NCBI GenBank assembly: GCA_045632305.1
Contig: JAZQWL010000020.1
Span: 677 to 64,676 of the forward strand
DNA length: 64,000 bases
DNA from: Eubacteriales bacterium
Lineage (GTDB): Bacteria > Bacillota > Clostridia > Oscillospirales > CAG-272
Direction: 5' to 3'
Below, piece after piece: positions 49,502 through 64,000 of this stretch (position 1 is the first letter of the stretch; each line of letters starts with the position of its first letter). Position numbers and translations under genes: made by a program. The notes beneath the pieces were generated by a model. The model made no database searches. It was not told where the DNA came from and saw only the letters and a list, made by a program, of their open reading frames with translations.

Positions 49502-49566
49502 AGATTCTGAAGAAGAATATTTTCAGGTCACCCCCTGAAAAAAACTGCATTTTGGAGGAAAAACAC

Positions 49567-50760
49567 ATGAAAATTCTGGTTATCAATGCCGGAAGCAGCT
49601 CCCTCAAATATCAGCTTTTTGATATGGAGAACGGCAACGTTCTCGCAAGAGGTCTCTGTGAAAAGATCGGACTTACCGGCGCTATCACTCACAAGCGTCC
49701 CGGCAAGGAAAATTACGCAACAGATCATCCGATGCCCACTCACAACGAAGCTATCGCTCTTGTGCTCAAGCTTCTCACAGACCCCGAGCTCGGAGTTATT
49801 TCAAGCGTTGACGAAATCTCCGCCGTAGGTCACAGATTCGCGCACGGCGGCAAGATCACAAAATCCTGCGTTCTCGGTGAAGAGGAGCTCAAGTACATTG
49901 AATCCATCATCCCGATCAATCCCCTTCACGGCCCGCCCGCACTCAAGGGTGTAGCGGCATGCAAGGCAATTATGCCTGACAAGACAATGGTTGGTGTATT
50001 CGATACATCCTTCTACTCCGGCTTTGACAAGAAGACTTATATGTACGCACTCCCCTACGAGTGGTATGAAAAGTACGGTGTTCGTCGCTACGGCTTCCAC
50101 GGAACGTCTCACAGATTCGTTTCCGCAAAGGCGTGCGAGTTCCTCGGCCTTGACTACAACACAACTAAGATAGTTTCCTGCCACATCGGCTCCGGCTCCT
50201 CTATTACAGCCGTTGCAAACGGTAAGGCAGTTGATACATCCCTCGGCTTCACCCCTCAGGAAGGTTTGCCCATGGGTACAAGATGCGGTTCTATCGACCC
50301 CTCGATCGTTCCCTACATCATCGAGCAGACAGGCATGTCCGCTGCAGAGGTTAACGATATCATGAACAAGAAGTCCGGTCTTCTTGGTGTATCCGGTGTT
50401 TCCAACGACGCTCGTGACGTTTGGGTAGCTGCTGACGCAGGCAACGAAAGAGCAAAGCTCGCTATGGACCTCCTCGTTCACAACGCAAAGAAGATCGTCG
50501 GCTCCTACGTAGCTGAAATGAACGGCATCGACGTTCTCATCTTCACAGCAGGTCTTGGTGAAAACGACCGTTTGGTTCGTGAAATGGTTTGCGAAAACAT
50601 GGAATTCTTCGGAATTGAATTCGACAAGGAATGGAATATGACTTGTCCTCGTGGTGAAAACACAGTTCTCTCCACTCCCGACTCCAAGGTTAAGGTCGTT
50701 GTAATCCCCACAGACGAGGAATACATGATCGCCTCCGACACATACGAGCTTGTAAAGTAA
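49567..50760 (+). CDS. ackA: Acetate/propionate kinase
   Basis: NAGSSSLK, GHR, PLH, FDT, RRYGFHGTSH, GTRCG, TAG-x-GEN, PTDEE. Confidence 0.93.
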   Translation: MKILVINAGSSSLKYQLFDMENGNVLARGLCEKIGLTGAITHKRPGKENYATDHPMPTHNEAIALVLKLLTDPELGVISSVDEISAVGHRFAHGGKITKSCVLGEEELKYIESIIPINPLHGPPALKGVAACKAIMPDKTMVGVFDTSFYSGFDKKTYMYALPYEWYEKYGVRRYGFHGTSHRFVSAKACEFLGLDYNTTKIVSCHIGSGSSITAVANGKAVDTSLGFTPQEGLPMGTRCGSIDPSIVPYIIEQTGMSAAEVNDIMNKKSGLLGVSGVSNDARDVWVAADAGNERAKLAMDLLVHNAKKIVGSYVAEMNGIDVLIFTAGLGENDRLVREMVCENMEFFGIEFDKEWNMTCPRGENTVLSTPDSKVKVVVIPTDEEYMIASDTYELVK

Positions 50761-50844
50761 GCTCCCCCACTTAGTAAATACTTTTTAGTATTTAAATAAA
50801 TCGGTTTTTTAAAAAATTTTTATATTTGAAAGGACGAAAACAAA

Positions 50845-51666
50845 ATGGCACAGTCTTCTTTTGAAATCAAAAAGGAAATCTGCGACATAGGTAAGAGAAT
50901 CTATGATCACGGTTTCGTAGCAGCAAACGACGGTAACATCTCCGTTAAGGTAGGACCTAACGAGTTCTACTGCACACCTACAGGTGTATCCAAGGGTTAC
51001 ATGACACCCGACATGATCATCAAGGTTGACGCTGAAGGTAACAAGCTCGACGGTAGACTTAATCCTTCCTCCGAAATCAAGATGCACATGAGAGTCTACA
51101 GAGAAAGACCCGACGTTAACGCAGTTGTACACGCTCACCCCCCTGTAGCTACAGCTTTCACAGTAGCAGGCGTTGAGCTCGACCAGTACATCCTCCCCGA
51201 AGCAATCCTCACAATCGGTAACGTTCCCACATGTGACTACGGTATGCCCTCCACAATGGAAATTCCCGATTCCCTTATGCCCTACATTCAGAAGCACGAT
51301 GCATTCCTTCTTAAGAACCACGGCGCTCTTACAGTAGGTAACACTCTTCTCAGAGCATGCTTCACAATGGAAGAAGTTGAATTCAACGCAAAGATCAACC
51401 TCTTCGCTCGTCAGATCGGCGCAGGCGCTAACAGCCGCATCGATGAAATTTCTTGCTACGAGCTTGAACGCCTTATGGAACTCCGCAAGAAGATGGGTCT
51501 TCCCGGTAAGCACCCCGGTTGTAAGTCTTGTCCTAACAACGGCACATCCAACTGCAAGTGCAAGGACAACGGCGGCAGCTGCAACTGCGGTAGCCACACA
51601 AAGCCCCAGGGTGACGACCTTGTAGCTGACATCACAAGAAAGGTTCTCGCTGCTCTCGGTAAATAA
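50845..51666 (+). CDS. Class II aldolase (probable L-fuculose-1-phosphate aldolase) with C-terminal encapsulation peptide
   Basis: DGNIS, TPTG-x-SKG, PSSE-x-x-MH, HAH, NHG; tail DLVADITRKVLAAL. Confidence 0.88.
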   Translation: MAQSSFEIKKEICDIGKRIYDHGFVAANDGNISVKVGPNEFYCTPTGVSKGYMTPDMIIKVDAEGNKLDGRLNPSSEIKMHMRVYRERPDVNAVVHAHPPVATAFTVAGVELDQYILPEAILTIGNVPTCDYGMPSTMEIPDSLMPYIQKHDAFLLKNHGALTVGNTLLRACFTMEEVEFNAKINLFARQIGAGANSRIDEISCYELERLMELRKKMGLPGKHPGCKSCPNNGTSNCKCKDNGGSCNCGSHTKPQGDDLVADITRKVLAALGK

Positions 51667-51729
51667 TTCGATGGCGAAAGCTTCATTTATTATTAAATAA
51701 CGAATTTTTTGAAAGGAGCGTCCGAAGAC

Positions 51730-53190
51730 ATGATAAACAATCTTACAGAGGCACAGGTTCGTGAAATCGTTTCAAGAGTTGTGTCCGAGTATAACAAGCC
51801 CACTCCCGCGGCACCCGCTAAGGATTGGGATGCTACGCAGTATCACGGACGCAAGCTCATCGGTATTTACGCGACAATGGAAGAAGCTATTGACGCGGCA
51901 AATAAGGGATATAAAGCAGTTCGCGCTATGTCCGTAGCAGAACGTGAAAAAATCGTTACAGCGATCCGTGAGCTCACAAGAGCTGAGGCAAGAAACATGG
52001 CAGCCCTCGGTGTTGCTGAAACAAAAATGGGTAGAGTTGACCACAAGTATGCAAAGCATCTTCTCGTGGCTGACAAGACACCCGGTACCGAAGATATCGT
52101 ATCTGAAGCTAAGACAGGTGATAACGGTCTTACACTTACAGAAATGGCTCCCTTCGGTGTAGTTGGTGCTATCACACCCTCTACAAACCCCTCGGAAACG
52201 GTAATCTGCAACAGTATCGGTATGATCGTTGCGGGCAACGGCGTTGTATTCAACCCCCACCCCGGCGCGATCGCAACATCCAACTATGCAGTTGACCTTG
52301 TTAACCGCGCAGTCAGATCTGCAGGCGGCCCCGAGGTTTTGGTTGCAAGTGTAGTTAAGCCCACACTTGACACCGCAAACGTAATGTACAAGCATCCTTT
52401 GATCAAGCTCCTCGTATGTACGGGCGGCCCCGGCGTTGTAAAGGCAGTTCTTTCCTCCGGCAAGAAGGCAATCGGCGCAGGCGCGGGCAATCCCCCCGTT
52501 ATCGTAGACGATACGGCTGATATCGATAAGGCGGCTAAGGATATTATTGACGGATGCACGTTCGACAACAACCTTCCCTGCATCGCAGAAAAGGAAGTGT
52601 TCGTATTCGACAACGTTGCAGACAGACTCATTGCAGGTATGATTAAGGCAGGATGCTACAAGCTCACACGTGAGCAGGCAGATAAGCTCGCATCCGTAGT
52701 TCTTGATAAGAAGGAAAACCCCAAGACAGGTAAGATCTCTTACGCTGTTAACCGTGACTGTGTTGGACGTGACGCGGCAGTTCTTCTTTCGAAGATCGGC
52801 ATAAACGTTGGTCCCGAGATCCGTTGCGCGATCGCTGAGGTTCCCTTCGACCACCTCTTCGTTCAGGAAGAGCTTATGATGCCGATCCTCGGTATCGTTC
52901 GCGTACGCGACATTGACGAAGCCATCGATCTCGCAGTTAAGGCAGAGCATGGCAACCGTCATACAGCACACATGCACTCCAAGAACATTGACAACCTTAC
53001 AAGATTTGCAAGAGAGGTTGAAACTACTATCTTCGTTAAGAACGCGCCCTCCTATGCCGGCATCGGCTTCGGCGGCGAAGGTCATGCAACGTTTACGATT
53101 GCAGGTCCTACGGGCGAAGGTATTACGTCCGCTCGCAGCTTTACAAGAAAGAGACGCTGCGTAATGGTGGACAACTTCAGAATTATCTGA
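51730..53190 (+). CDS. pduP: CoA-acylating aldehyde dehydrogenase (PduP/EutE family)
   Basis: PSTNP, TGG, GAGNPP, FDNNLPCIAEK, ELMMP, EHG-x-x-HTA, PTGEG; N-terminal encapsulation peptide. Confidence 0.88.
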   Translation: MINNLTEAQVREIVSRVVSEYNKPTPAAPAKDWDATQYHGRKLIGIYATMEEAIDAANKGYKAVRAMSVAEREKIVTAIRELTRAEARNMAALGVAETKMGRVDHKYAKHLLVADKTPGTEDIVSEAKTGDNGLTLTEMAPFGVVGAITPSTNPSETVICNSIGMIVAGNGVVFNPHPGAIATSNYAVDLVNRAVRSAGGPEVLVASVVKPTLDTANVMYKHPLIKLLVCTGGPGVVKAVLSSGKKAIGAGAGNPPVIVDDTADIDKAAKDIIDGCTFDNNLPCIAEKEVFVFDNVADRLIAGMIKAGCYKLTREQADKLASVVLDKKENPKTGKISYAVNRDCVGRDAAVLLSKIGINVGPEIRCAIAEVPFDHLFVQEELMMPILGIVRVRDIDEAIDLAVKAEHGNRHTAHMHSKNIDNLTRFAREVETTIFVKNAPSYAGIGFGGEGHATFTIAGPTGEGITSARSFTRKRRCVMVDNFRII

Positions 53191-53218
53191 TAGAATCTCA
53201 CGAAAGGAAATTGATAAA

Positions 53219-54442
53219 ATGGATATTTCTGCTTCCCAGATCGAAAGCATCGTAAGAAGCGTGATCCAGTCCATGGGTGTTTCCTCAGCTCCTGCAGCAG
53301 GCAACATTCCCAAGACAGCTCACGTAGCAATGCTTACAGGTCCCAAGAAAATTGAAGTGAAGGAATTCCCCATCCCCGAGCTCGGCGATAACGACATTCT
53401 CGTTAAGGTTGAAGGCGCGGGCGTATGCGGAACTGACGTTCACGAATGGAAGATGGACCCGTTCGGACTTATCCCCGTTATCCTCGGTCACGAGGGTACA
53501 GGTGAGGTAGTAGCCGTTGGTAAAAACGTAAAGGTTGATACCGCAGGCAAGCCCCTCAAGGTTGGCGATAAGATCGTAACATCCGTTACAAACTGCGGCG
53601 AATGCTATGCATGCCGCATGACCCCCGGTAGAACAAACCTCTGTGACAATCAGGGTGTATTTGGTCTTATCGGTGATAACAGAGGTCAGGCAGAGGGCAA
53701 CCGTCTCAACGGTTGGTTCGCTGACTACATGGTAATTAAGGGCGGTTACGGAATTACATATTTCCAGGTTAACGACTTAAATCTCAAGCAGAGAATGATT
53801 CTCGAGCTTGCTTGCGTATGTGTTCACGCACTTGAAAGAGCACAGTCCACAGGACTTCTCAACTTCGGCTCCAAGGTTCTCCTTCAGGGCTGCGGTCCCG
53901 TAGGTCTTACAATGATCACAGTACTCAGAGCTGCAGGTATCAACCACATTATCGCTGTCGACGGTAACGAAGACCGCCTTAAGGTTGCGCAGAGAATGGG
54001 TGCTAAGACAACTATCTGCTTCAAGCGTCCCGATGAAGACACACTTGAAAAGAGAGTTGCAAAGGTTAAAGAGGTTGCAAACGGCGTAGGCGTTGATTTC
54101 GCATTCCAGTGCACAGGCGCTCCCGTAGCAGCTGCTGATATCTACAGCTTTATCCGTCGTGGCGGCGGTATGTGCGAAATGGGCTTCTTCGTAAACAACG
54201 GAGATTACCAGATCAATCCTCACCTCGCTATGTGTAATAAGGAAATCAACATCGTTGGTTCTTGGGACTACTCCGCTGAGGACTATCCTAAGACAATGGC
54301 ATTCTTGCATCAGTGTGAAGAGATGAACATTCCGATCGAGGAACTCATCACACACTCCTTCCCTCTTGACAAGATGAACGAAGCTATGGAAACAAACGTA
54401 GCTCAGAAGGGCATCAAGATTTGCTACATCAACGATAAATAA
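53219..54442 (+). CDS. Zinc-dependent (MDR) alcohol dehydrogenase with N-terminal encapsulation peptide
   Basis: CGTD, GHE, CGECYAC...C, G-x-GPVG. Confidence 0.88.
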   Translation: MDISASQIESIVRSVIQSMGVSSAPAAGNIPKTAHVAMLTGPKKIEVKEFPIPELGDNDILVKVEGAGVCGTDVHEWKMDPFGLIPVILGHEGTGEVVAVGKNVKVDTAGKPLKVGDKIVTSVTNCGECYACRMTPGRTNLCDNQGVFGLIGDNRGQAEGNRLNGWFADYMVIKGGYGITYFQVNDLNLKQRMILELACVCVHALERAQSTGLLNFGSKVLLQGCGPVGLTMITVLRAAGINHIIAVDGNEDRLKVAQRMGAKTTICFKRPDEDTLEKRVAKVKEVANGVGVDFAFQCTGAPVAAADIYSFIRRGGGMCEMGFFVNNGDYQINPHLAMCNKEINIVGSWDYSAEDYPKTMAFLHQCEEMNIPIEELITHSFPLDKMNEAMETNVAQKGIKICYINDK

Positions 54443-54457
54443 TCGAGGTTGTAATAT

Positions 54458-54799
54458 ATGGCAGCTCTCGGTATGATTGAGGTTTATGGCTACGCGACCT
54501 CAATAGTAATCGCAGACTTGGTGGCAAAGACCGCCAACGTTAAGGTCGTGGCTATCGACAAGCACAAGCCCGGCAAGCCCGATGAATGTCCCATTCCGCT
54601 TATTATGGCGGTTAAGTTCGAGGGTGATGCAGGTGCGGTGCGCTCCGCTCTTGACGCCGCAGTTGAAGAGGCACAGCGCAGAAATCTCTACGTAACGTCC
54701 TCCTTCATCGCAGGACTTGACGAACGCGTTCAGTGGTTCGCAACTCTTAAGGCAACGGGCAAAGATAAGCTCAGAAACATGGACATCACAAACGATTGA
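54458..54799 (+). CDS. BMC shell hexamer protein (divergent)
   Basis: ALGMIEV-x-G...AD-x-x-x-KTANV...GD-x-x-AV. Confidence 0.8.
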   Translation: MAALGMIEVYGYATSIVIADLVAKTANVKVVAIDKHKPGKPDECPIPLIMAVKFEGDAGAVRSALDAAVEEAQRRNLYVTSSFIAGLDERVQWFATLKATGKDKLRNMDITND

Positions 54800-54854
54800 T
54801 CCATAACACAAATTAAAAATAATAAAAAGTTATATTTAAAGGAGATTTAACATC

Positions 54855-55130
54855 ATGAAAGAAGCACTTGGTATGGTTGAAACAAGAGGTCTTGTAGCTG
54901 CAATTGAAGCTGCAGATGCTATGGTTAAGGCAGCAAACGTAGAACTTATCGGTTCTGAAAAGATCGGTTCCGGTCTCGTATCCGTTATGGTTCGCGGCGA
55001 CGTTGGCGCAGTTAAGGCAGCAGTTGAAGCAGGTGGCGCAGCAGCTTCCAGACTCGGCGAAGTTATCGCTACACACGTTATTCCCAGACCCCACACAGAC
55101 GTTGATAAGCTTCTCCCTGTTCTTAAGTAA
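54855..55130 (+). CDS. BMC shell hexamer protein (PduA/EutM-like)
   Basis: [38 protein letters not shown]. Confidence 0.96.
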
Positions 55131-55162
55131 TTTCAAATTTTCAGTAAAGGAAGAACTTAATT

Positions 55163-55447
55163 ATGGAAAAGGCTATTGCGTTGCTTGAAGTCCGCGCTAT
55201 GGTTGCTGCTATAGCAGGTCTTGACGCGATGGTTAAGACCGCGGATGTAAAACTTATTCATGTCGAGAAGCGTCTCGGCGGATGGCTCGTAACGGTTATC
55301 GTTGAGGGCTCCGTTTCCGCTTGTACCGCTGCCCTCGAAGCAGGTAAGGTGGCGGCATCAGCTGTCGGTCGTGTGTATAACGCAGAAGTAATCGCTCGTC
55401 CTCACTCCGACATTATGCAATTCATAAAGACCGATCCCGGTGTATAA
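55163..55447 (+). CDS. BMC shell hexamer protein (divergent)
   Basis: LLE...DAMVKTADV...G-x-V-x-A...IARPH. Confidence 0.88.
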   Translation: MEKAIALLEVRAMVAAIAGLDAMVKTADVKLIHVEKRLGGWLVTVIVEGSVSACTAALEAGKVAASAVGRVYNAEVIARPHSDIMQFIKTDPGV

Positions 55448-55507
55448 CACCGCTCGGCAAAACAAACTCTAACAAAAATTTTAAAAAAATAAAAGGAGAT
55501 TACACTC

Positions 55508-55783
55508 ATGAACGAAGCACTTGGTATGGTTGAAACAAGAGGTCTTGTAGCTGCAATTGAAGCTGCAGATGCTATGGTTAAGGCAGCAAACGTTGAACTC
55601 ATCGGTTCTGAAAAGATCGGTTCCGGTCTCGTATCCGTTATGGTTCGCGGCGACGTTGGCGCAGTTAAGGCAGCAGTTGAAGCAGGCGGAGCGGCAGCTT
55701 CCAGACTCGGCGAAGTTATCGCTACACACGTTATTCCCAGACCCCACACAGACGTTAACAAGCTTCTTCCTAAGCTCGGTTAA
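55508..55783 (+). CDS. BMC shell hexamer protein (PduA/EutM-like), near-identical copy of 54855-55130
   Basis: Same motifs; 4 of 91 residues differ. Confidence 0.96.
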
Positions 55784-55945
55784 TTTTAAATACTGGTGGA
55801 ACATGCGTGTCTTGCTCGGATATTTCCGAGCAAGACACCACACAAAAGTTACTTTCGTATCTTTAGTATAAATTATGGAAGGAAATTTCACGGTTTATTC
55901 CGAAGATATGAAAATAACGTCATTAAATGAAAGGTAGATTTTAAC

Positions 55946-56599
55946 ATGGATATCACAGCAAAAGACATCGCCGAAATCGTAAAGAAGGTTATCTCCGAGG
56001 TTCAGTCCGAGGGTAACTCCGGCAACGAGATCCCCGTTGGTATTTCCAACAGACACATTCATTTAAATAAAGCAGACCTTGAAACACTCTTCGGTCCCGG
56101 CTACGAGCTTACTCCTATCAAGGATCTCTCCCAGCCCGGTCAGTACGCGTGCAAGGAAACCTTGACACTTGTAGGCCCTTCCATGAGAGCCATTGAAGGC
56201 GTTCGCGTTCTCGGTCCTCTCCGTAAGACGAGCCAGGTTGAAATTTCCGTTACAGATTCCTTTGTTCTCAAGGTTAAGCCCCCTGTAAGAGAATCCGGTA
56301 AGATCGAGGGCTCCGCTCCCGTAACTATCATCGGCCCTAAGGGTACAGTAACTCTTAAGGAAGGTTGCATTATCGCAAACAGACATATTCACATGAGTCC
56401 CGACGATGCCGCTCGCTTCGGTGTTAAGGATAACGATTACATTGACGTTGACGCATTCTCAGGCACAAAGAGGACTCGTTGGTTCGGCGTTCAGGTAAGA
56501 GTTCACAAGGACTTCCGCCTTGAGATGCACGTTGACACAGACGATGCGAATGCTGTTGGCTTCAAGAACGGAAGCACCGTAACGGTAGTTAAGAACTGA
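55946..56599 (+). CDS. pduL: Phosphate propanoyltransferase
   Basis: SNRHIHL, LSQPGQY, VRVLGP-x-R, RHIHM, MHVDTDDANA; N-terminal encapsulation peptide. Confidence 0.93.
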   Translation: MDITAKDIAEIVKKVISEVQSEGNSGNEIPVGISNRHIHLNKADLETLFGPGYELTPIKDLSQPGQYACKETLTLVGPSMRAIEGVRVLGPLRKTSQVEISVTDSFVLKVKPPVRESGKIEGSAPVTIIGPKGTVTLKEGCIIANRHIHMSPDDAARFGVKDNDYIDVDAFSGTKRTRWFGVQVRVHKDFRLEMHVDTDDANAVGFKNGSTVTVVKN

Positions 56600-56621
56600 T
56601 TCAATTTGAAAGGATATAAAA

Positions 56622-56885
56622 ATGTTAAAAGGTAAAGTTGTTGGAACGATAGTATCCACAAACAAGCTCGACAAGCTCGTTGGCTACAAGTTCCTTGAAG
56701 TTAGAATTATCGAAAACAATGTTTTGACAGACAAGTACGTAGTTGCGGTTGACAGAATGGTCAGCGCAGGTATCGGCGAAGAAGTGCTTATCACTATGGG
56801 CAGCAGCGCCAGAGAGGCAGTAGGCGACGCTCACTCCCCCGTTGACGCGGTTGTAGTAGGCGTTGTTGATAAAAACCAGAACTAA
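56622..56885 (+). CDS. BMC vertex pentamer (EutN/CcmL/PduN family)
   Basis: G-x-V-x-G-x-x-VST-x-K, AGIGE-x-V, GSSAR, PVDA-x-VVG-x-VD. Confidence 0.94.
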   Translation: MLKGKVVGTIVSTNKLDKLVGYKFLEVRIIENNVLTDKYVVAVDRMVSAGIGEEVLITMGSSAREAVGDAHSPVDAVVVGVVDKNQN

Positions 56886-56925
56886 TTAATAAAAGCATAA
56901 ATTTTCCCCGAAAGGACGCACGTAT

Positions 56926-58269
56926 GTGCGCAAAATAAAAATGTCCGAATTTAATTTAAAATCAATCATGCAAAACGCAAGCATCGTCGGTGCGGGCGGC
57001 GCGGGATTCCCTTCCTTTGCCAAGCTTGCTGACGGCGCTGATACACTCTGCATCAACTGCGCAGAGTGCGAGCCCTTGATGTATACAGACTACATGCTCA
57101 TGCGCGATGAGATGCCCCGCATCGTTGAAGGCGCGCAGATCGTGATGGAAGCAACGGGTATTCGTCATACGTTCATTTCCGTAAAGGAACACAGAGCGCA
57201 CATGCTCGGTCTTTCTGACGGTCAGATCCTCGGTCAGAACGTAAGCGTAAAATATCTTCCCAACGTATACCCCATGGGTGATGAAATCAATCTTATTTAC
57301 GAAACCACAGGAAGAGTCGTTAAGCCCGGTAACCTTCCCATCACGGCAGGCGTTATCGTTCTCAACGGTGAAACCGTTTACAATATTTATAAGGCAGTTC
57401 GCGAGGGTAAGCCCGTTTATGAAAAATGGGTGACCGTAGGCGGAGATATCCCCGAAAGATATACCGTTCGCGTTCCCGTCGGTATGAGAGTTTCCGAGCT
57501 CTTTGAAAAGCTTGGCGTAACAGTTAAGCAAAATCAGGTTCTCATCGACGGCGGCCCTTCGATGGGTAGAATCAAGAATCCTGCCTCCGCGGTTATCACA
57601 AAGACCACAAAGGCGCTCCTCATTCTTCCCGACAACATCAATGCGGTTGCTCACAAGCAGCTCTCCATGGACGACATGCTCCGCCGCGCAGCTTCCTGCT
57701 GCTGCGGATGTAACCGTTGCACAGAGCTCTGCCCCCGTCACCTTCTCGGTTACCCCCTTGAGCCCCACAAGATGATCAGAGCCGCTATGACAAATGCAGT
57801 TGTAGATAATCCCGAGCTCATCAAGACCGCTTCCCTCTGCTGCTCCTGCGGAGTTTGCGCGGAAGCCGCTTGCTGTCAGGATATTTCCCCGAAGGACGTT
57901 ATCTTCCACCTCAAGGGAATCCTTGCAAAGAATAAGATGAGATTCGTTGCGGGTAATGAAAGCTACACTCCCGATCCCGACCGTCAGTATCATATGATAC
58001 CCTCCGAAAAATGGGAAACTATACTCGGTGTTCACAAGTTTGACTTCGTAACAAAGTACATCCCCGAGATGATCCCCGCAAAGAAGGTTGAGATCTTAAT
58101 GTCCCAGCACATCGGCGCTCCTTCCGTTCCCGCAGTGAACGTCGGAGACACGGTTGAAGCAGGTCAGCTCATCGCAAACGTAGGCGCAGGACTTTCCGTT
58201 CCTCAGCACGCCTCAATTTCGGGTAAGGTGGTCTTTGTTGACAATACAAAGATCATTATCGAAGCGTAA
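56926..58269 (+). CDS. pduS: PduS-like Fe-S flavoprotein (RnfC-related)
   Basis: GAGGAGFP, NCAECEP, YPMGDE, GGPSMG, two Cys clusters, C-terminal QHIGAP...HASISG. Confidence 0.85.
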   Translation: MRKIKMSEFNLKSIMQNASIVGAGGAGFPSFAKLADGADTLCINCAECEPLMYTDYMLMRDEMPRIVEGAQIVMEATGIRHTFISVKEHRAHMLGLSDGQILGQNVSVKYLPNVYPMGDEINLIYETTGRVVKPGNLPITAGVIVLNGETVYNIYKAVREGKPVYEKWVTVGGDIPERYTVRVPVGMRVSELFEKLGVTVKQNQVLIDGGPSMGRIKNPASAVITKTTKALLILPDNINAVAHKQLSMDDMLRRAASCCCGCNRCTELCPRHLLGYPLEPHKMIRAAMTNAVVDNPELIKTASLCCSCGVCAEAACCQDISPKDVIFHLKGILAKNKMRFVAGNESYTPDPDRQYHMIPSEKWETILGVHKFDFVTKYIPEMIPAKKVEILMSQHIGAPSVPAVNVGDTVEAGQLIANVGAGLSVPQHASISGKVVFVDNTKIIIEA

Positions 58270-58302
58270 AATCAGAAAATTTAGCAAAGCAGGTAACAAT
58301 AA

Positions 58303-58848
58303 ATGTATCAGGCAATTGGCGTAATTGAACTTAAAAGTATAGCTAAGGGTATTGAAGCTACAGACGCCGCGCTCAAGAGCGCAGGCATCAGTCTCGTATC
58401 CGCGCGCCCCGCATGTCCCGGTAAGTTTGAAATGATCATCACAGGCACTATTTCAAACGTAAGCAGCGCGCTCGACCACGTAAAGGAAAGATTCGGCGAC
58501 AAGCTCGTTGACGCTTCCCTTATGGGACGTATCGATCCCCAGGTCATCACTGCTCTCTTCGGCACACAGGTAGCTGAAAAGAAGGGCAGCTTAGGTATTA
58601 TCGAAACTTATTCCGCGGCAAGCACTATCAAAGCGGCTGATATCGCGGTTAAAACATCCAAGGTTGCTATTTTCGAGCTTCGCGTATCCCGCGGTATGGG
58701 CGGTAAGGGCGTTGTTCTCGTAACAGGTGACGTTGGTGACGTTACAGCAGCAGTTGAGGCGGGCTCCGACTACGCAAAGCAGCAGGGCCTTTACCACAAC
58801 AGCTCCGTTATCGCAGCTCCCCACGAGCTTCTCTGGGAGCAGATCTAA
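58303..58848 (+). CDS. pduT: Tandem-domain BMC shell trimer (PduT-like)
   Basis: SIAKGI, CPGK Fe-S pore motif, GMGGKG; directly after pduS. Confidence 0.88.
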   Translation: MYQAIGVIELKSIAKGIEATDAALKSAGISLVSARPACPGKFEMIITGTISNVSSALDHVKERFGDKLVDASLMGRIDPQVITALFGTQVAEKKGSLGIIETYSAASTIKAADIAVKTSKVAIFELRVSRGMGGKGVVLVTGDVGDVTAAVEAGSDYAKQQGLYHNSSVIAAPHELLWEQI

Positions 58849-58897
58849 AAAACAATTCACGCGATCCCTTTTATTCTATAGAAAGAGATAATTAACT

Positions 58898-61429
58898 ATG
58901 GGTGAAATTAAATTTGTAATAGAAAAGAGCCCGCGTATCGACCGACTCATCACGCATCTCTACGAGAATATGCCCGAGATCGAGGCGGACAGAGCCGAGC
59001 TTTTAACTGAAAGCTACAAGCAGACTGAGGGTATGCCCATCATCAAGCGTCGTTCCGCGGCATTCGCGCACATTCTTCGCAATATTCCGATCATCATCCG
59101 TCCAGAGGAGCTTATCGTTGGTTCTAACTCCATCCATCCTCGCGGATGCCAGACGTTCCCCGAATATTCCTTTGAATGGCTCGAGCCCGAATTCGACTCT
59201 ATCGCTACACGTGAAGCAGACCCCTTCTATATATCCCCCTCCACTATCGAACGCCTCAAGAAGGTTCATCCTTACTGGAAGGGCAAGACTGTAAGTGACC
59301 TTGCTATCAACAGCATGGATCCCAAGGTTCTCGACGTGTTCCTCAACCACGGCATCTTCACAGTTGGTAACTACTTCTACAACGGTGTAGGCCACATCAA
59401 CGTCGACTATGCAAAGGTTATCAATCACGGTCTTGAATCCATCATCGAAGAAGCAAAGGAAGAAATCTCCAAGCTTTACATAGGACACGGTGATTACCTC
59501 AAGAGAAAGGCATTCCTTGAAGCAGTAATCGAGAGCTGTGAGGGTGTTATCCACTACGCTCGCCGTTACTCCGACCTCGCTCTTGAAGAAGCAGGCAAAT
59601 GTACTGACAGTGTAAGAAAGGCAGAGCTTCTCCGCATCGCTGAGGCGTGTGACAGAGTTCCCGCCAAGCCCGCAAGAAGCTTCTACGAGGCATGTCAGTC
59701 CTTCTGGTTCATTCAGCAGCTCATTCAGTGTGAATCCAGCGGCCACTCTATTTCTCCCGGTCGCTTTGACCAGTATATGTACCCCCACTTCAAGAGAGAT
59801 CTTGATATGGGCGTTATCGACCACAAGCAGGCGCAGGAATACCTCGACTGCATTTGGGTTAAGCTCAACGACCTCAACAAGGTTCGTGACGCGGCATCCG
59901 CAGAGGGATTTGCGGGCTACGGCCTTTTCCAGAACCTCATCGTAGGCGGTCAGAACGAAGACGGTGTTGACGTAACTAACGACCTCTCTTACATGTGTCT
60001 TGAGGCAACAATGCACGTTCGTCTTCCCCAGCCCTCCCTTTCCATCCGTGTATGGAACCGTTCTCCTCACGATCTTCTTATCAAGGCAGCGGCGGTTACA
60101 CGTGAAGGCCTCGGCGTTCCAGCATTCTACAACGACGAGGTTATTATTCCCTCCATTATGGCAAGAGGTCTTACACTTGAGGACGCTCGCGACTACTGTA
60201 TCATCGGTTGCGTAGAGCCCCAGAAGGGTGCAAAGACAGACGGTTGGCACGATGCAGCATTCTTCAACATGTGCCGTCCTCTCGAGCTCGTATTCTCTAA
60301 CGGTTATGACAAGGGCGAGCTTATCGGTCTCCAGACAGGAGACGTTGAAAAGATGGGCTCCTTTGAAGAATTCTTCGACGCTTATAAGCGTCAGCAGCAC
60401 TACATGATCGAAATGATGGTTCACGCTGACAACGCGGTTGACTATGCTCACTCCGTTCGCGGTGTACTTCCCTTCGAATCCTGCCTCTGCAACGACTGTC
60501 TTAAGAAGGGCATCTCCCTCCAGGAAGGCGGCGCGATTTACAACTTCACAGGTCCTCAGGGCTTCGGTATCGCTAACATGACCGACGCGCTCATCGCAAT
60601 CAAGACGCTCGTATTCGAGGAACGCAAGGTTTCCATGGCAGAAATGAAGCAGGCGCTTGCTGACAACTTCGGTAAGGGTTATATCCCCAAGAAGTCCCTC
60701 GAGCTTACAACAGAAGCATGCAAGGCACTCGACGCACAGGGCATCGAGGTTACTGCCGACATGATCAAGAAGATCTACAATTCCTTCCTTAACAATACAG
60801 TTATCAGCGCAGAAAAGAAGGCACGTTACGACGAGATCCTTTCCATGATCGAAGCGCTTCCCAAGTACGGTAACGATATTCCCGAGGTTGACAACTTTGC
60901 TCGCGAGGTTGGTAACACATATACCAAGCCCTTCGAAAAGTTCACAAACCCCAGAGGCGGTATGTTCCAGGCAGGTCTTTACCCCGTATCCGCAAACGTT
61001 CCGCTCGGTTACCAGACAGGTGCTACACCCGACGGCAGACTTTCGAATACTCCTATTGCAGACGGCGTAGGCCCTGCATCCGGCAGAGATATTATGGGCC
61101 CGACGGCAACTGCAAACTCCGTTGCCCGCCTTGACCACGGTATCGCTTCCAACGGTACACTCTTCAACCAGAAGTTCCACCCCTCCGCGCTTACAGGTTA
61201 TGCGAGTCTTGAAAAGTTCGTAGCTTACCTCCGCGGTTACTTCGATCAGAAGGGTATGCACGTTCAGTACAACGTAGTATCCAAAGAAACACTTCTCGAC
61301 GCGCAGAAGAACCCCGAAAAGTACAAGACTCTCGTGGTTCGTGTTGCGGGCTACAGCGCACTCTTTACAACTCTCTCCCGTTCTCTTCAGGATGATATCA
61401 TCAACCGTACAGAACAGGGCAATATCTAA
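58898..61429 (+). CDS. Glycyl radical enzyme, probable B12-independent 1,2-propanediol dehydratase
   Basis: GCVEP Cys loop, RVAGYS Gly loop, ESSGHSISPGR, DAAFFN; context with aldolase, PduP and PduL. Confidence 0.85.
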   Translation: MGEIKFVIEKSPRIDRLITHLYENMPEIEADRAELLTESYKQTEGMPIIKRRSAAFAHILRNIPIIIRPEELIVGSNSIHPRGCQTFPEYSFEWLEPEFDSIATREADPFYISPSTIERLKKVHPYWKGKTVSDLAINSMDPKVLDVFLNHGIFTVGNYFYNGVGHINVDYAKVINHGLESIIEEAKEEISKLYIGHGDYLKRKAFLEAVIESCEGVIHYARRYSDLALEEAGKCTDSVRKAELLRIAEACDRVPAKPARSFYEACQSFWFIQQLIQCESSGHSISPGRFDQYMYPHFKRDLDMGVIDHKQAQEYLDCIWVKLNDLNKVRDAASAEGFAGYGLFQNLIVGGQNEDGVDVTNDLSYMCLEATMHVRLPQPSLSIRVWNRSPHDLLIKAAAVTREGLGVPAFYNDEVIIPSIMARGLTLEDARDYCIIGCVEPQKGAKTDGWHDAAFFNMCRPLELVFSNGYDKGELIGLQTGDVEKMGSFEEFFDAYKRQQHYMIEMMVHADNAVDYAHSVRGVLPFESCLCNDCLKKGISLQEGGAIYNFTGPQGFGIANMTDALIAIKTLVFEERKVSMAEMKQALADNFGKGYIPKKSLELTTEACKALDAQGIEVTADMIKKIYNSFLNNTVISAEKKARYDEILSMIEALPKYGNDIPEVDNFAREVGNTYTKPFEKFTNPRGGMFQAGLYPVSANVPLGYQTGATPDGRLSNTPIADGVGPASGRDIMGPTATANSVARLDHGIASNGTLFNQKFHPSALTGYASLEKFVAYLRGYFDQKGMHVQYNVVSKETLLDAQKNPEKYKTLVVRVAGYSALFTTLSRSLQDDIINRTEQGNI

Positions 61430-61507
61430 TTGAAATTATCGGCTTACCCCGATTGACAGATCAGTCGGGGTAAGTACAAAACATTCCGACAGAAAGGAGG
61501 AATAGCT

Positions 61508-62305
61508 ATGCACGACAAAATATTCAATCAGACGGGACGTATTTTTGATATTCAGAGATATTCCATTCACGACGGTCCGGGTATAAGAACAATAGTATTC
61601 CTCAAGGGATGTTACCTGCGTTGCAAGTGGTGCTGCAATCCCGAATCTCAGGAATACGGCATTCAACAGATGACACTTGCAGGCAAGACCAAGACCGTAG
61701 GACGCGACGTAACTGTTGCCGAGGTTATGGACGAGGTCGTAAAGGACGACCGCTATTACCGCAGAAGCGGTGGCGGTATCACCCTCTCGGGCGGCGAATG
61801 TATGGCTCAGCCCGAATTTGCAGAAGCGCTTCTCCGCGCGGCTCACGAATACGGTTATTCAACCGCTATCGAAACAACTGCCTTCGCTTCCCGCGAGGTA
61901 GTAGCAAGACTTCTTCCCCACGTTGACCATTTCCTTATGGACATCAAGCACATGAATTCGAAGAAGCACGAGGAATTCACCTCAAGGCCCAACGAACAAA
62001 TTCTTGAAAATGCAAAATATATCGCCGAGAACGCAAAGCATCTCATAATCAGAGTACCCACAGTTCCGACGTTTAACGATACACCCGAGGAGATTTCTGC
62101 TATCGCAAGATTTGCTGATTCTCTTCCCAACGTAACCGAAATGCATCTTCTCCCCTACCACCGTCTCGGTCAGGACAAGTATGCAGGTATCGGTCGCACC
62201 TATTCCCTTGACGGAATCACACCGCCCACAAACGAGCATATGCAGGAGCTTCTCCGCGCCGCAAAGGCAGTTTCCACGAAGCTTCACGTGCAGATAGGCG
62301 GCTAA
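61508..62305 (+). CDS. Glycyl-radical enzyme activating enzyme (radical SAM)
   Basis: HDGPGIRT, CYLRCKWCCNPE, SGGE, LLPYH. Confidence 0.94.
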   Translation: MHDKIFNQTGRIFDIQRYSIHDGPGIRTIVFLKGCYLRCKWCCNPESQEYGIQQMTLAGKTKTVGRDVTVAEVMDEVVKDDRYYRRSGGGITLSGGECMAQPEFAEALLRAAHEYGYSTAIETTAFASREVVARLLPHVDHFLMDIKHMNSKKHEEFTSRPNEQILENAKYIAENAKHLIIRVPTVPTFNDTPEEISAIARFADSLPNVTEMHLLPYHRLGQDKYAGIGRTYSLDGITPPTNEHMQELLRAAKAVSTKLHVQIGG

Positions 62306-62329
62306 AAAATCTCTTTTAAGGAGAAAAAC

Positions 62330-62701
62330 ATGATAAACAATTTTGAGATGAAGGACAAAATGAGAATAGTCCAGGAGCTTGTTCCCGGTCGACAGATCTC
62401 ACTTTGCCATATTATAGCAAATCCCGATTCTGTTCTTTACCAGAAGCTCGGTCTTGATCCCTCCGTTGACTACAAGCACGCCGCTATCGGTCTTCTTACG
62501 GTTTCCCCCGCGGAAACTGCGGTTATCACGGCAGATATCGCCCTCAAGGCATCGGGCGCTGAGCTTGGCTTCGTTGACAGATTTTCGGGCACACTTATTA
62601 TCACGGGAACTGTTTCCGAGGTTGAGGCATCTCTCAACGCCATCAGCGATTACTTCAAGAACACACTCGGCTTTACAGTTTGTGACGTGACGAAAACGTA
62701 A
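62330..62701 (+). CDS. Circularly permuted BMC shell protein (EutS/PduU family)
   Basis: RIVQELVPGRQ, HIIANP, P-x-ETA-x-I-x-AD, DRFSG. Confidence 0.93.
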   Translation: MINNFEMKDKMRIVQELVPGRQISLCHIIANPDSVLYQKLGLDPSVDYKHAAIGLLTVSPAETAVITADIALKASGAELGFVDRFSGTLIITGTVSEVEASLNAISDYFKNTLGFTVCDVTKT

Positions 62702-63129
62702 TGAAAAAGCTTATACTTATGGGCAGAGTTGCGGCGGGTAAGACCACGCTCACTCAGGCGCTCAAGGGAGAGAAGCTTCACTACTGCAAAACCCAGTATA
62801 TCGACTATATGGACACGATAATCGACACTCCCGGCGAATATATGCAGGTTCACGGCCTCGGAGCCGCGCTTGCCATCTATTCCTACGAGGCGGACGTCGT
62901 AGGCGTAGTCATCTCCGCCAACGAGCCCTATTGCGTGTTCCCGCCAAACGTTGCCTGCATGGTCAACCGCGAGGTTATCGGCATCATCACGGGTATCGAC
63001 AAGCCCGACGCTAACATTCCGTTGGCTGAGCAGTGGATGAAGAATATCGGCTGCGAAACAGTTTTCCACATCAGCTCACACACGGGCGAAGGACTTAACG
63101 ACATCATTGATTATTTAAATCGCGATTAA
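62701..63129 (+). CDS. EutP/PduV-family small P-loop NTPase
   Basis: G-x-x-x-x-GKTTL-x-Q, KTQ, IDTPGEY. Confidence 0.93.
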   Translation: MKKLILMGRVAAGKTTLTQALKGEKLHYCKTQYIDYMDTIIDTPGEYMQVHGLGAALAIYSYEADVVGVVISANEPYCVFPPNVACMVNREVIGIITGIDKPDANIPLAEQWMKNIGCETVFHISSHTGEGLNDIIDYLNRD

Positions 63130-63153
63130 AATAAACTCTACTCGGAGGCAAAT

Positions 63154-63945
63154 ATGTCTAAAACAAAAGTAATCTGCTTTGCCAATAACAAGGGCGGAAG
63201 CGGAAAATCCACCACGTGCGCCAATATCGGCTACTCGATAAGCACTCTCGGCAAGAAGGTTCTTCTTATCGACGGAGATATGCAGATGAACTTAACACTT
63301 TCCTTCTTTGACGATGAAAAGTCCCTTGAGTTCGCAAAGAACGGCAACAATATCTACACGGCCGTGCTTGAAGGCAAGGATCTTACGGATTTCATCGTTC
63401 CTACAGATTACGAAGGACTTGACATAATTCCCTCCTCAACTCTTATGAGCAGCATCGAGCTTCAGCTCTTCACGAAGATGCAGAGAGAGCTCATCTTAAA
63501 GCGTTGCTTAATGAAGATCCGCGAATCGGACGTTTACGATTACATTCTGATCGACTCCCCTCCGACTCTCGGCTCTTGGGTTACAAACATTATGTGCGCG
63601 TCCGACTTTCTTGTAATTCCCGTCGAGGCATCCCCCTGGGGACTCTTCGGCCTTGCAAATATGTTTGAGTTCTACGAGAACGTAAAGCTCATCACACCCA
63701 CGCTCAATCTTATGGGTATTGCAGTTACCAAGGCAAGCGAGCGTAAGAATTACTTTAAGCAGACGATCGAAACTCTCTCGTCGCTTGACAACGTTCGTCT
63801 TTTCAACACAATTATTCGAATCGACAGCAACGTTGAATGGTCACAGGACAACAGTAAGCCCGTTATGGCTTACAGAAAAACAAGCCGCGCAGCCGGTGAA
63901 TATATGGAAATGGCACAGGAGGTTATGAAGTATGCCGATAGGTAA
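63154..63945 (+). CDS. ParA/Soj-family ATPase at the end of the BMC operon
   Basis: Deviant Walker A KGGSGKST, IDGDMQMN, YILIDSPP Walker B; no MinD-type membrane-targeting tail. Confidence 0.92.
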   Translation: MSKTKVICFANNKGGSGKSTTCANIGYSISTLGKKVLLIDGDMQMNLTLSFFDDEKSLEFAKNGNNIYTAVLEGKDLTDFIVPTDYEGLDIIPSSTLMSSIELQLFTKMQRELILKRCLMKIRESDVYDYILIDSPPTLGSWVTNIMCASDFLVIPVEASPWGLFGLANMFEFYENVKLITPTLNLMGIAVTKASERKNYFKQTIETLSSLDNVRLFNTIIRIDSNVEWSQDNSKPVMAYRKTSRAAGEYMEMAQEVMKYADR

Positions 63946-64000
63946 GGACAGCATCACAAAAAGAGTAGCAAAGGTTGATACAACCGAAGAAAACATCGTC
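63932..64000 (+). CDS. Unannotated ORF coupled to the ParA gene, 3'-truncated by window edge (MPIGKDSITKRVAKVDTTEENIV...)
   Basis: AGGAGG RBS at 63917-63922, ATG at 63932 overlapping the last 14 nt of parA, open to the window end. Confidence 0.7.
   Translation, partial: MPIGKDSITKRVAKVDTTEENIV

Follow-up and report, generated by a model that had tools for sequence, protein, structure and literature searches.

A ParA-type ATPase and its translationally coupled partner at the end of a glycyl-radical microcompartment operon: a candidate McdAB-like positioning system in Clostridia

The stretch of Eubacteriales DNA analysed here (the window; 64,000 nucleotides (nt), contig JAZQWL010000020.1 or C20, positions 677-64676, plus strand) ends in two overlapping genes, a parA gene and a small open reading frame (ORF) for a partner protein. 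They close a predicted aldolase-containing glycyl-radical microcompartment (GRM) operon, the first strong terminator of which comes right after them. The pair is best read as an McdAB-like two-component positioning system for bacterial microcompartments (BMCs) of the glycyl-radical, fucose/rhamnose type, and a probability of about 65% is given to this reading. According to it, ATP-bound ParA dimers would coat the nucleoid, while the small, probably disordered partner would sit on the microcompartment shell through a C-terminal motif, [D/E]-x-[L/M]-P-x-[Y/F/H/W]-L-[L/M]. An N-terminal peptide of the partner carrying Lys5 would contact ParA and stimulate ATP hydrolysis, and the resulting local clearance of ParA would let compartments travel up the gradient of ParA, keep their distance from each other and be divided between daughter cells. 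An earlier proposal made from the letters of the window (the original prediction) held that the pair positions or segregates fucose/propanediol microcompartments, and the evidence assembled below supports this as a reading of what the two proteins may do.

The partner ORF had been missing from the program-made list of frames and was suspected from an AGGAGG ribosome-binding site and an overlap with the parA stop. It is borne out as a conserved gene, translationally coupled to parA. Its ATG at 63932 lies 9 nt after the AGGAGG, and the overlap with the parA stop codon (63943-63945) amounts to 14 nt. Locus L001, the stretch of the same contig that reaches past the window's end, gives the complete protein of 105 amino acids (aa), which holds no ParB or helix-turn-helix (HTH) domain and is followed by a terminator. 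The N-terminus, MPIGKDSITKRVAK, is basic (K5, K10, R11, K14), as had been proposed, and the C-terminus reads GDELPIYLM, with Tyr at -3, Asp at -7 and Glu at -6. The isoelectric point is 9.5. Alanine (18%), lysine (16%), proline (10.5%), threonine (9.5%) and glutamic acid (9.5%) lead the composition, and together these five make up 77% of residues 15-75, a composition count rather than a disorder prediction; the protein is probably disordered. No Pfam or NCBIfam family scores above its cut-off, and the partner profile has 0 matches at E<=1 among solved structures. Membership of HC2 or NF038053 was rejected, both being low-complexity matches below threshold (19.1 bits against 40 and 18.8 against 80, respectively). 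In a protein search, 514 relatives were found at E<=0.01 among 3844 candidates, all of them unnamed or 'hypothetical', and an alignment of 32 partner relatives displays an invariant N-terminus, a linker of variable length and a conserved C-terminal block. Because of these 514 relatives, and of a coupled ORF in 106 of 114 loci with an orthologous ParA, the partner is no chance frame but a genuine conserved protein that belongs to none of the curated families.

The ATPase is as originally described, and its translation and Pfam agree: a ParA/Soj-family protein of 263 aa that starts 24 nt after the eutP/pduV-like gene (gap 63130-63153). It has a deviant Walker A motif, KGGSGKST, at residues 13-20 with signature Lys13, and the basic stretches SERK, IIRI and YRKTSR. 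A second Pfam match is to CbiA (3.2e-17), and no NCBIfam model reaches its cut-off, the best being ParA_partition with 75.7 bits against 180. A MinD identity was rejected (minD_bact, TIGR01968, 45.7 bits against a cut-off of 212.9); the C-terminus (...QEVMKYADR), like the Soj-type matches, would speak for a protein without a membrane helix. The closest solved chains are the ParA 8RAY (8e-30) and the Soj 6IUB (1.5e-23). Among 34 ParA orthologues, K13, G14, G15, S16, G17, K18 and T20 are invariant. Five basic residues in the C-terminal third (K193, R197, K198, K241 and R245) are conserved as well and may bind DNA. In one related family (f94, see below), ParA orthologues (L093:13427-14341, L094:13578-14474) may have an N-terminal extension of ~40 residues, with ORFs of 299-305 aa against 263, provided that the upstream start codons are the ones used.

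Conservation of the partner was followed in a census of 114 loci with a ParA orthologue, which were found by ParA searches and in which the DNA after each orthologue was examined. To count as a partner, an ORF had to match M-x-[I/V/L]-G-[K/R/A/T] at its N-terminus, be 50 aa or longer and begin between -40 and +60 nt from the parA stop; the C-terminus was no criterion. Counted from the last base of the parA stop, the 106 coupled partners start 13 nt before it in 93 cases, 9 nt in 11 and 19 nt in 2. At their N-terminus all share Gly4, 103 have Lys5 and 96 have K or R at position 10, which gives the peptide motif M-x-[I/V]-G-K-x-S-I-x-[K/R]. At the other end, every partner has Pro at -5 and Met or Leu at -6, and 104 have Leu at -2, the same number carrying Leu or Met at -1. 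Position -3 is mostly aromatic (Y 58, F 25, H 18, W 5) and positions -8 and -7 are frequently acidic, so that the C-terminal motif given above takes the form DELPIYLM in the window's partner. Lengths run from 63 to 375 aa and the middle cannot be aligned: 39 partners average 27% column identity, 34 ParAs 78%. Two conserved short ends joined by a free-running linker, beside a well-conserved ATPase, make up the pattern of a ParA adaptor. A complex prediction of two ParA, the partner, two ATP and two Mg scored 0.01 against a mark of 0.32, was run without controls and is counted neither way.

A few loci deviate. One variant partner (L109, G1021:C1) has the N-terminus M-N-M-P-G-K-T-K-V-G-T-G-S-M-Q-R and the tail S-A-L-P-V-H-L-L; it falls outside the N-terminal pattern, and the true partner count is therefore slightly above 106 of 114. 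At three loci of family f55 (L098, L099 and L106, in G938, G1028 and G992), ParA is followed, in place of an adaptor, by an ORF of 320-334 aa that starts M-x-x-E-L-L-K. One f94 genome (G683) has no adaptor ORF after ParA, the neighbours there being nusA and infB.

The main argument for the cargo comes from the co-occurrence of ParA with microcompartments in four Clostridia families, namely the window's own and three referred to as f96, f55 and f94, a gene-neighbourhood survey of the kind that the original prediction had called for. A ParA orthologue was taken as a tblastn match of at least 52% identity and E<=2e-86, with nothing between those values and the 1e-45 or 1e-50 limits used, and a genome as BMC-positive when it holds a match to the shell domain PF00936, both in the same genome samples. 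Of 91 ParA-positive genomes, 89 are BMC-positive, and ParA is found in only 2 of the 391 BMC-negative genomes, which therefore points to the microcompartment, rather than something else, as the cargo.

The families differ in how much each contributes to this total. In the window's family (301 genomes), 37 of the 66 BMC-positive and 0 of the 235 BMC-negative genomes have ParA; since the pair lies inside the operon there, the counts say no more than that it is present or absent together with the locus. In f96 (76 genomes) the figures are 21 of 21 and 0 of 55, with the pair near shell genes, and in both of these families the same GRM operon closes with the pair. In f55, sampled with one genome for each genus (151 genomes), ParA is present in 21 of 52 BMC-positive and 0 of 99 BMC-negative genomes (one-sided Fisher test 7e-12, a value overstated as the relatives are not independent). 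In about half of the f55 cases the pair is found apart from the BMC locus. Ten genomes have ParA on a contig bearing listed shell matches, 1-86 kb off and upstream, downstream or divergent, and 11 have it on another contig than the BMC genes. Ten of those 11 have no ParA in the 13-20 kb around the main BMC locus, so that co-occurrence in f55 is independent of linkage. All 12 genomes of f94 have ParA and 10 of them are BMC-positive, ParA and the main BMC locus being on different contigs in all 10. It had been argued beforehand that homologous pairs lying mostly away from BMC loci would speak against a microcompartment role; the pairs are found at the operon end in two families and elsewhere almost only in BMC-positive genomes.

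A partner-profile scan, with one genome per species, approached the same linkage from the other gene and returned 60 loci, all in Clostridia metagenome-assembled genomes (MAGs) of animal guts and rumen. A ParA orthologue (tblastn, 67-95% identity) lies directly upstream in 59 of them, the remaining locus having 6 nt of upstream DNA. In 55 loci PduV comes before the ParA orthologue; the upstream DNA of the remaining five is no longer than 732 nt. The longer loci contain the BMC-domain gene, the glycyl radical enzyme (GRE) activase, the GRE, BMC-T, PduS, EutN, PduL and BMC-H in the window's order. An order-level search with a narrow partner profile hit 1 of 201 genomes, the source genome only; that profile was too narrow, and the wider family was found with the ParA query.

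Eleven partners of orthologous ParAs, from 10 f94 loci and 1 f55 locus, are long forms of 164-375 aa (among them L094:14468-14977 in G809, L095:2036-2563 and those of L116-L124). All eleven match PF02195, the ParB N-terminal domain (ParB_N), with a best E of 1.7e-14; it is the sole domain found, and no HTH domain was detected in them. Within this domain G-x-x-R is invariant, and the motif around it reads G-[H/Y/N]-[K/R]-R-x-x-A. The long forms share their ends with the short ones, M-S-I-G-K at the N-terminus and P-x-[Y/F]-L-L at the C-terminus. A block of the short partners, PETVEAVIGHKE, was considered as a relic of ParB_N and found no support, as hhalign of short against long forms aligned the first 10 residues only (probability 34%, E 4e-4); because the alignment reaches no further, the link between short and long forms is drawn from the shared ends and the orthologous ParA, not from the middle. 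In addition, the short partner and the genome's own ParB have similar tetrapeptides close to their starts, IGKD and LGRD respectively. Together with the ParB_N long forms, this likeness suggests a ParB ancestry of the adaptors. Tentatively, and with doubt prevailing, the family might descend from a ParB, such that the long forms would have kept the ParA-contact peptide and a ParB_N of the CTP-binding type while the HTH and dimerisation parts were replaced by a shell-docking tail, [D/E]-x-[L/M]-P-x-[Y/F/H/W]-L-L, and the short forms would have a disordered linker in their place.

The operon in which the window's pair stands (Table 1) holds an 843-aa ORF that we take to be the GRE and a 265-aa ORF that we take to be its activase, both labels being drawn from the translations; in this order they lie between the 181-aa ORF and the gene of the 123-aa BMC-domain protein. 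By its gene content it would be a fucose/rhamnose-type GRM operon, the presumed cargo of the pair. In the catalogue of microcompartment loci, the pfam00596 aldolase is tied to the GRM5 type that processes fuculose and rhamnulose phosphates (PMC8217296).

Table 1. Features of the operon end and of the parA-partner pair (window coordinates unless stated; RBS, ribosome-binding site).
Feature	Position	Strand	Basis
Acetate kinase, class II aldolase, aldehyde dehydrogenase, zinc-dependent alcohol dehydrogenase, four BMC-H, PduL, EutN/BMC-P, in this order	49552..62701 (with later ORFs)	+	Pfam
447-aa ORF, presumably PduS-like	56926..58269	+	label from the translation
181-aa ORF, presumably BMC-T	58303..58848	+	label from the translation
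123-aa BMC-domain protein	gene directly before pduV	+	Pfam
PduV/EutP-type small GTPase, 142 aa, directly before parA	62701..63129	+	Pfam PF10662, E 1.7e-49
RBS of parA, GGAGG, in the pduV-parA gap	63144..63148	+	sequence
ParA/Soj-family ATPase, 263 aa	63154..63945	+	Pfam AAA_31, E 1.3e-50
RBS of the partner ORF, AGGAGG, within the parA 3' end	63917..63922	+	sequence; 9 nt before ATG 63932
Partner, first 23 codons of 105 aa; ORF continues to window-equivalent 64249 (L001 2279..2596)	63932..64000	+	sequence, census

Membership of the pair in this operon is seen on both sides. A consensus scan found 0 promoter-like and 0 terminator-like sites in the pduV-parA gap, in keeping with the earlier statement that no terminator separates the two genes. 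Right after the partner stop, at L001 2598-2637, lies a hairpin followed by a U-run (-22.8 kcal/mol, z -8.1, 0 of 200 shuffles as stable), which came from a separate folding of the stretch, the terminator scan not having listed it. A separate promoter that would uncouple the pair from the BMC transcript had been considered as an objection. One near-consensus sigma-70-like site, TTGACA-16-TATTAT (11/12), is located at 62574-62601 (L001 921-948), inside the gene of the 123-aa BMC-domain protein and ~100 nt before pduV. As a conserved internal promoter it was rejected: the homologous place scores 6-11 in 75 loci and at least 10 in only 22 of the 75, and synonymous positions drift. It may be active in this strain. 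Beyond the terminator runs a convergent ORF (L001 2637-3179, minus strand), inside which the contig stops; it is Thr/Glu/Pro/Asp-rich and of low complexity, and ends in a hydrophobic stretch and RRKRE, which gives it the look of a membrane anchor.

Metatranscriptome libraries from animal guts give a weak hint of expression, as relatives' parA and partner occur on the same RNA-library contigs as BMC genes. A contig of 3269 nt from a ~92%-alike relative covers L001 20-2583, from the GRE activase to near the partner end, and two further runs of the same study have contigs ending at L001 2560. In another study, a 200-nt contig with 1 difference spans the pduV-parA junction (L001 1446-1643). Six sequencing runs contain small shares of 0.05-0.15, from which no habitat or strain conclusion is drawn.

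Several observations weigh against the positioning of microcompartments by this pair. The links of the partner to the shell and to ParA are ones that we infer. Position -3 is His, no classical aromatic, in 18 of the 106 partners, and 8 of the 114 ParA-orthologue loci lack a partner as defined. The solved McdA structures 6NON/6NOO match the ParA weakly (5e-12 over residues 4-189). This, in a Soj-like ParA, looks like a separate recruitment, and closeness to McdA in sequence is a weak criterion because alpha- and beta-McdA diverge from each other too (PMC8359340, section 2.7). In the RNA libraries DNA carry-over is possible, and a contig across genes is no proof of a single transcript. The pair was not found in 29 of the 66 BMC-positive genomes of the window's family and in 31 of the 52 in f55, where the BMC loci examined are of the aldolase-type GRM in 10 of 10 ParA-positive and 9 of 10 ParA-negative genomes; the pair is thus accessory and dispensable for the aldolase-type GRM. 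Two f94 genomes, 62% and 76% complete, have ParA and no BMC match. Many f55 and f94 pairs are placed among unrelated genes (a GNAT gene and an iron-dependent alcohol dehydrogenase; SpoIIP, CotH and LepA), and the operon position seen in the window is therefore not universal. Finally, the eleven distant partners with ParB_N would fit a DNA- or CTP-linked role too.

Dispensability for the BMC type would suit a pair that acts on microcompartments without nucleoid-gradient partitioning, as a static tether to the nucleoid, as a factor against aggregation or for condensates, or in controlling the place or time of shell assembly. The same co-occurrence and motif evidence applies to such roles, and the Lys/Ala/Pro-rich middle, with its sub-threshold scores against histone-H1-like families (HC2 0.0015, NF038053 0.0016), might bind DNA itself. 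An active ATPase cycle is nevertheless what the intact deviant Walker A and the high column identity of the ParAs would lead one to expect, and the near-invariant Lys5 peptide resembles the ATPase-stimulating peptides described for ParA partners (PMC12139897, section 5), which makes these roles unlikely.

The unlinked pairs of f55 and f94 among unrelated genes, the ParB N-terminal domain in 11 of 11 long-form partners and the presence of ParA in all 12 f94 genomes, including the two without a BMC match, could alternatively mean that the pair positions another cargo, DNA or a protein assembly, and travels with BMC loci through shared ancestry or ecology. Against this stands the lack of ParA in every BMC-negative genome of f55 (99), the window's family (235) and f96 (55). 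Furthermore, the unlinked contexts looked at have no further cargo gene in common, neither short nor long partners have an HTH or other DNA-binding domain, and both f94 exceptions are incomplete genomes. Another cargo is accordingly considered quite improbable.

A chromosome or plasmid partition module of the ParABS type, or its remnant, is the least credible alternative, for which speak the Soj-like sequence of the ATPase, the ParB_N domain of distant partners and the IGKD/LGRD likeness, and against which stand a complete soj-parB with four parS sites elsewhere in the genome, no parS in the window, a partner without HTH or dimerisation domain, a best plasmid-record match of 40.5% for ParA and none for the partner, and selection at both partner termini across 106 loci, because of which the partner is not a decaying remnant. 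The genome's own soj and its 297-aa parB lie on contig C43, and that ParB bears an HTH and a GERRWRA box and starts ...GGLGRDF.... Upstream of them are four parS-like sites, 37 nt apart (C43:58016-58164), one perfect and three with one mismatch. With the parS consensus used in these searches, the 64-kb window gave 0 matches at up to 2 mismatches. The partner is not the full ParB CTPase with parS nearby that had been named beforehand as a possible outcome: it has 105 aa and no family above cut-off. A plasmid origin was rejected, the 72,556 plasmid records containing a best ParA match of only 40.5% identity and 0 matches to the partner. A second ORF with a ParB_N domain is present at C32:103617-103901 (L003), in an open frame of 467 aa (E 4.9e-16).

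Read as an McdAB-like positioning system, the pair bears on the open question of how catabolic microcompartments are spaced and inherited. Apart from one study of PduV, the organisation of metabolosomes is described as unclear (PMC8262871), and directed studies on non-carboxysome BMCs are said to be still needed (PMC13052382). The present work offers a sharply defined ParA-adaptor family in MAGs of animal-gut and rumen Clostridia (as given in record titles) and two short motifs open to direct mutation, namely the Lys5 peptide at the N-terminus and the aromatic tail at the C-terminus, while co-occurrence at genome level points to the fucose/rhamnose GRM as cargo. A published prediction is thereby made testable in anaerobes. 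For engineering, the C-terminal tail would offer a candidate tag for docking to shells. An origin of the adaptor from ParB is hinted at by the long forms; if this were true, a DNA-segregation machine would have been retargeted to a protein organelle in gut Clostridia, and the long-form adaptors might carry a nucleotide switch that gates the positioning of the organelle.

Among known systems, two share part of the setting. Soj-Spo0J/ParB-parS uses the same ATPase family (33% identity between the window's ParA and the genome's own Soj) and likewise has its partner gene directly downstream, and the eleven distant partners keep a ParB_N domain with G-x-[K/R]-R-x-x-A. The window's partner, in contrast, has no ParB_N, HTH or dimerisation domain and no parS near it, the genuine system being on another contig. 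The PduV/EutP GTPase belongs to the same operon, directly upstream, with an unrelated fold and without an adaptor partner; PduV has been proposed for the positioning of the Pdu compartment (as cited in PMC8262871).

The closest known system is alpha-McdAB of Halothiobacillus neapolitanus, in which a ParA-type ATPase with the signature Lys is likewise encoded with a small downstream partner, largely disordered there and probably so here, in or next to a BMC operon (PMC8359340; PMC11321042; PMC12139897). In that organism, the first 20 residues of McdB are enough to bind McdA, with Lys7 as a critical residue (PMC12139897); the corresponding residue of the window's partner would be K5, and both N-termini are basic. 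Alpha-McdB also has an aromatic residue within its last four or five residues with acidic neighbours, as does the partner here. The two differ in their cargo, a carboxysome there and a catabolic glycyl-radical metabolosome of anaerobic Clostridia here, and in the aromatic residue itself, as carboxysomal McdB has an invariant W while the present partners have Y, F or H, with W in only 5 of 106. A W-to-Y exchange retains carboxysome binding in S. elongatus (Basalla 2024, PMC11321042). The likeness to McdB is one of published hallmarks rather than of sequence alignment, and the pair shows the sequence-level hallmarks of the McdAB-like class, with disorder as a probable one and closeness to the solved McdA chains as the exception. 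The operational definition of McdB is a small ORF after mcdA whose product is charged at the N-terminus, disordered and equipped with an aromatic residue at the C-terminus (MacCready 2021, PMC8359340).

The idea itself is not new. The original prediction knew of no well-characterised equivalent for GRM compartments, which stands as far as experiments go: a literature search, with figure tables and supplements outside its reach, found neither an experimental study of a ParA system for metabolosomes nor an account of the adaptor motifs or of ParB_N long forms. As for predictions, McdAB-like pairs beside GRM and propanediol-utilisation (PDU) operons were already in print from bioinformatics (PMC8359340; PMC11321042), and McdAB-like systems beside other BMC operons are elsewhere described as predicted only (PMC8262871; PMC13052382). 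MacCready 2021 (PMC8359340) gives four examples of McdA/B-like genes inside or beside BMC operons other than those of carboxysomes, Tyr being among the last four residues, and Basalla 2024 (PMC11321042) describes, for putative PDU/GRM McdB-like proteins, a Y or F among the last five residues, with acidic residues near. The window's locus fits their description exactly, and the Clostridial family treated here may be among those examples. To these predictions the present analysis adds the definition of the N- and C-terminal motifs, the 106-locus census, the co-occurrence counts and the ParB_N long forms.

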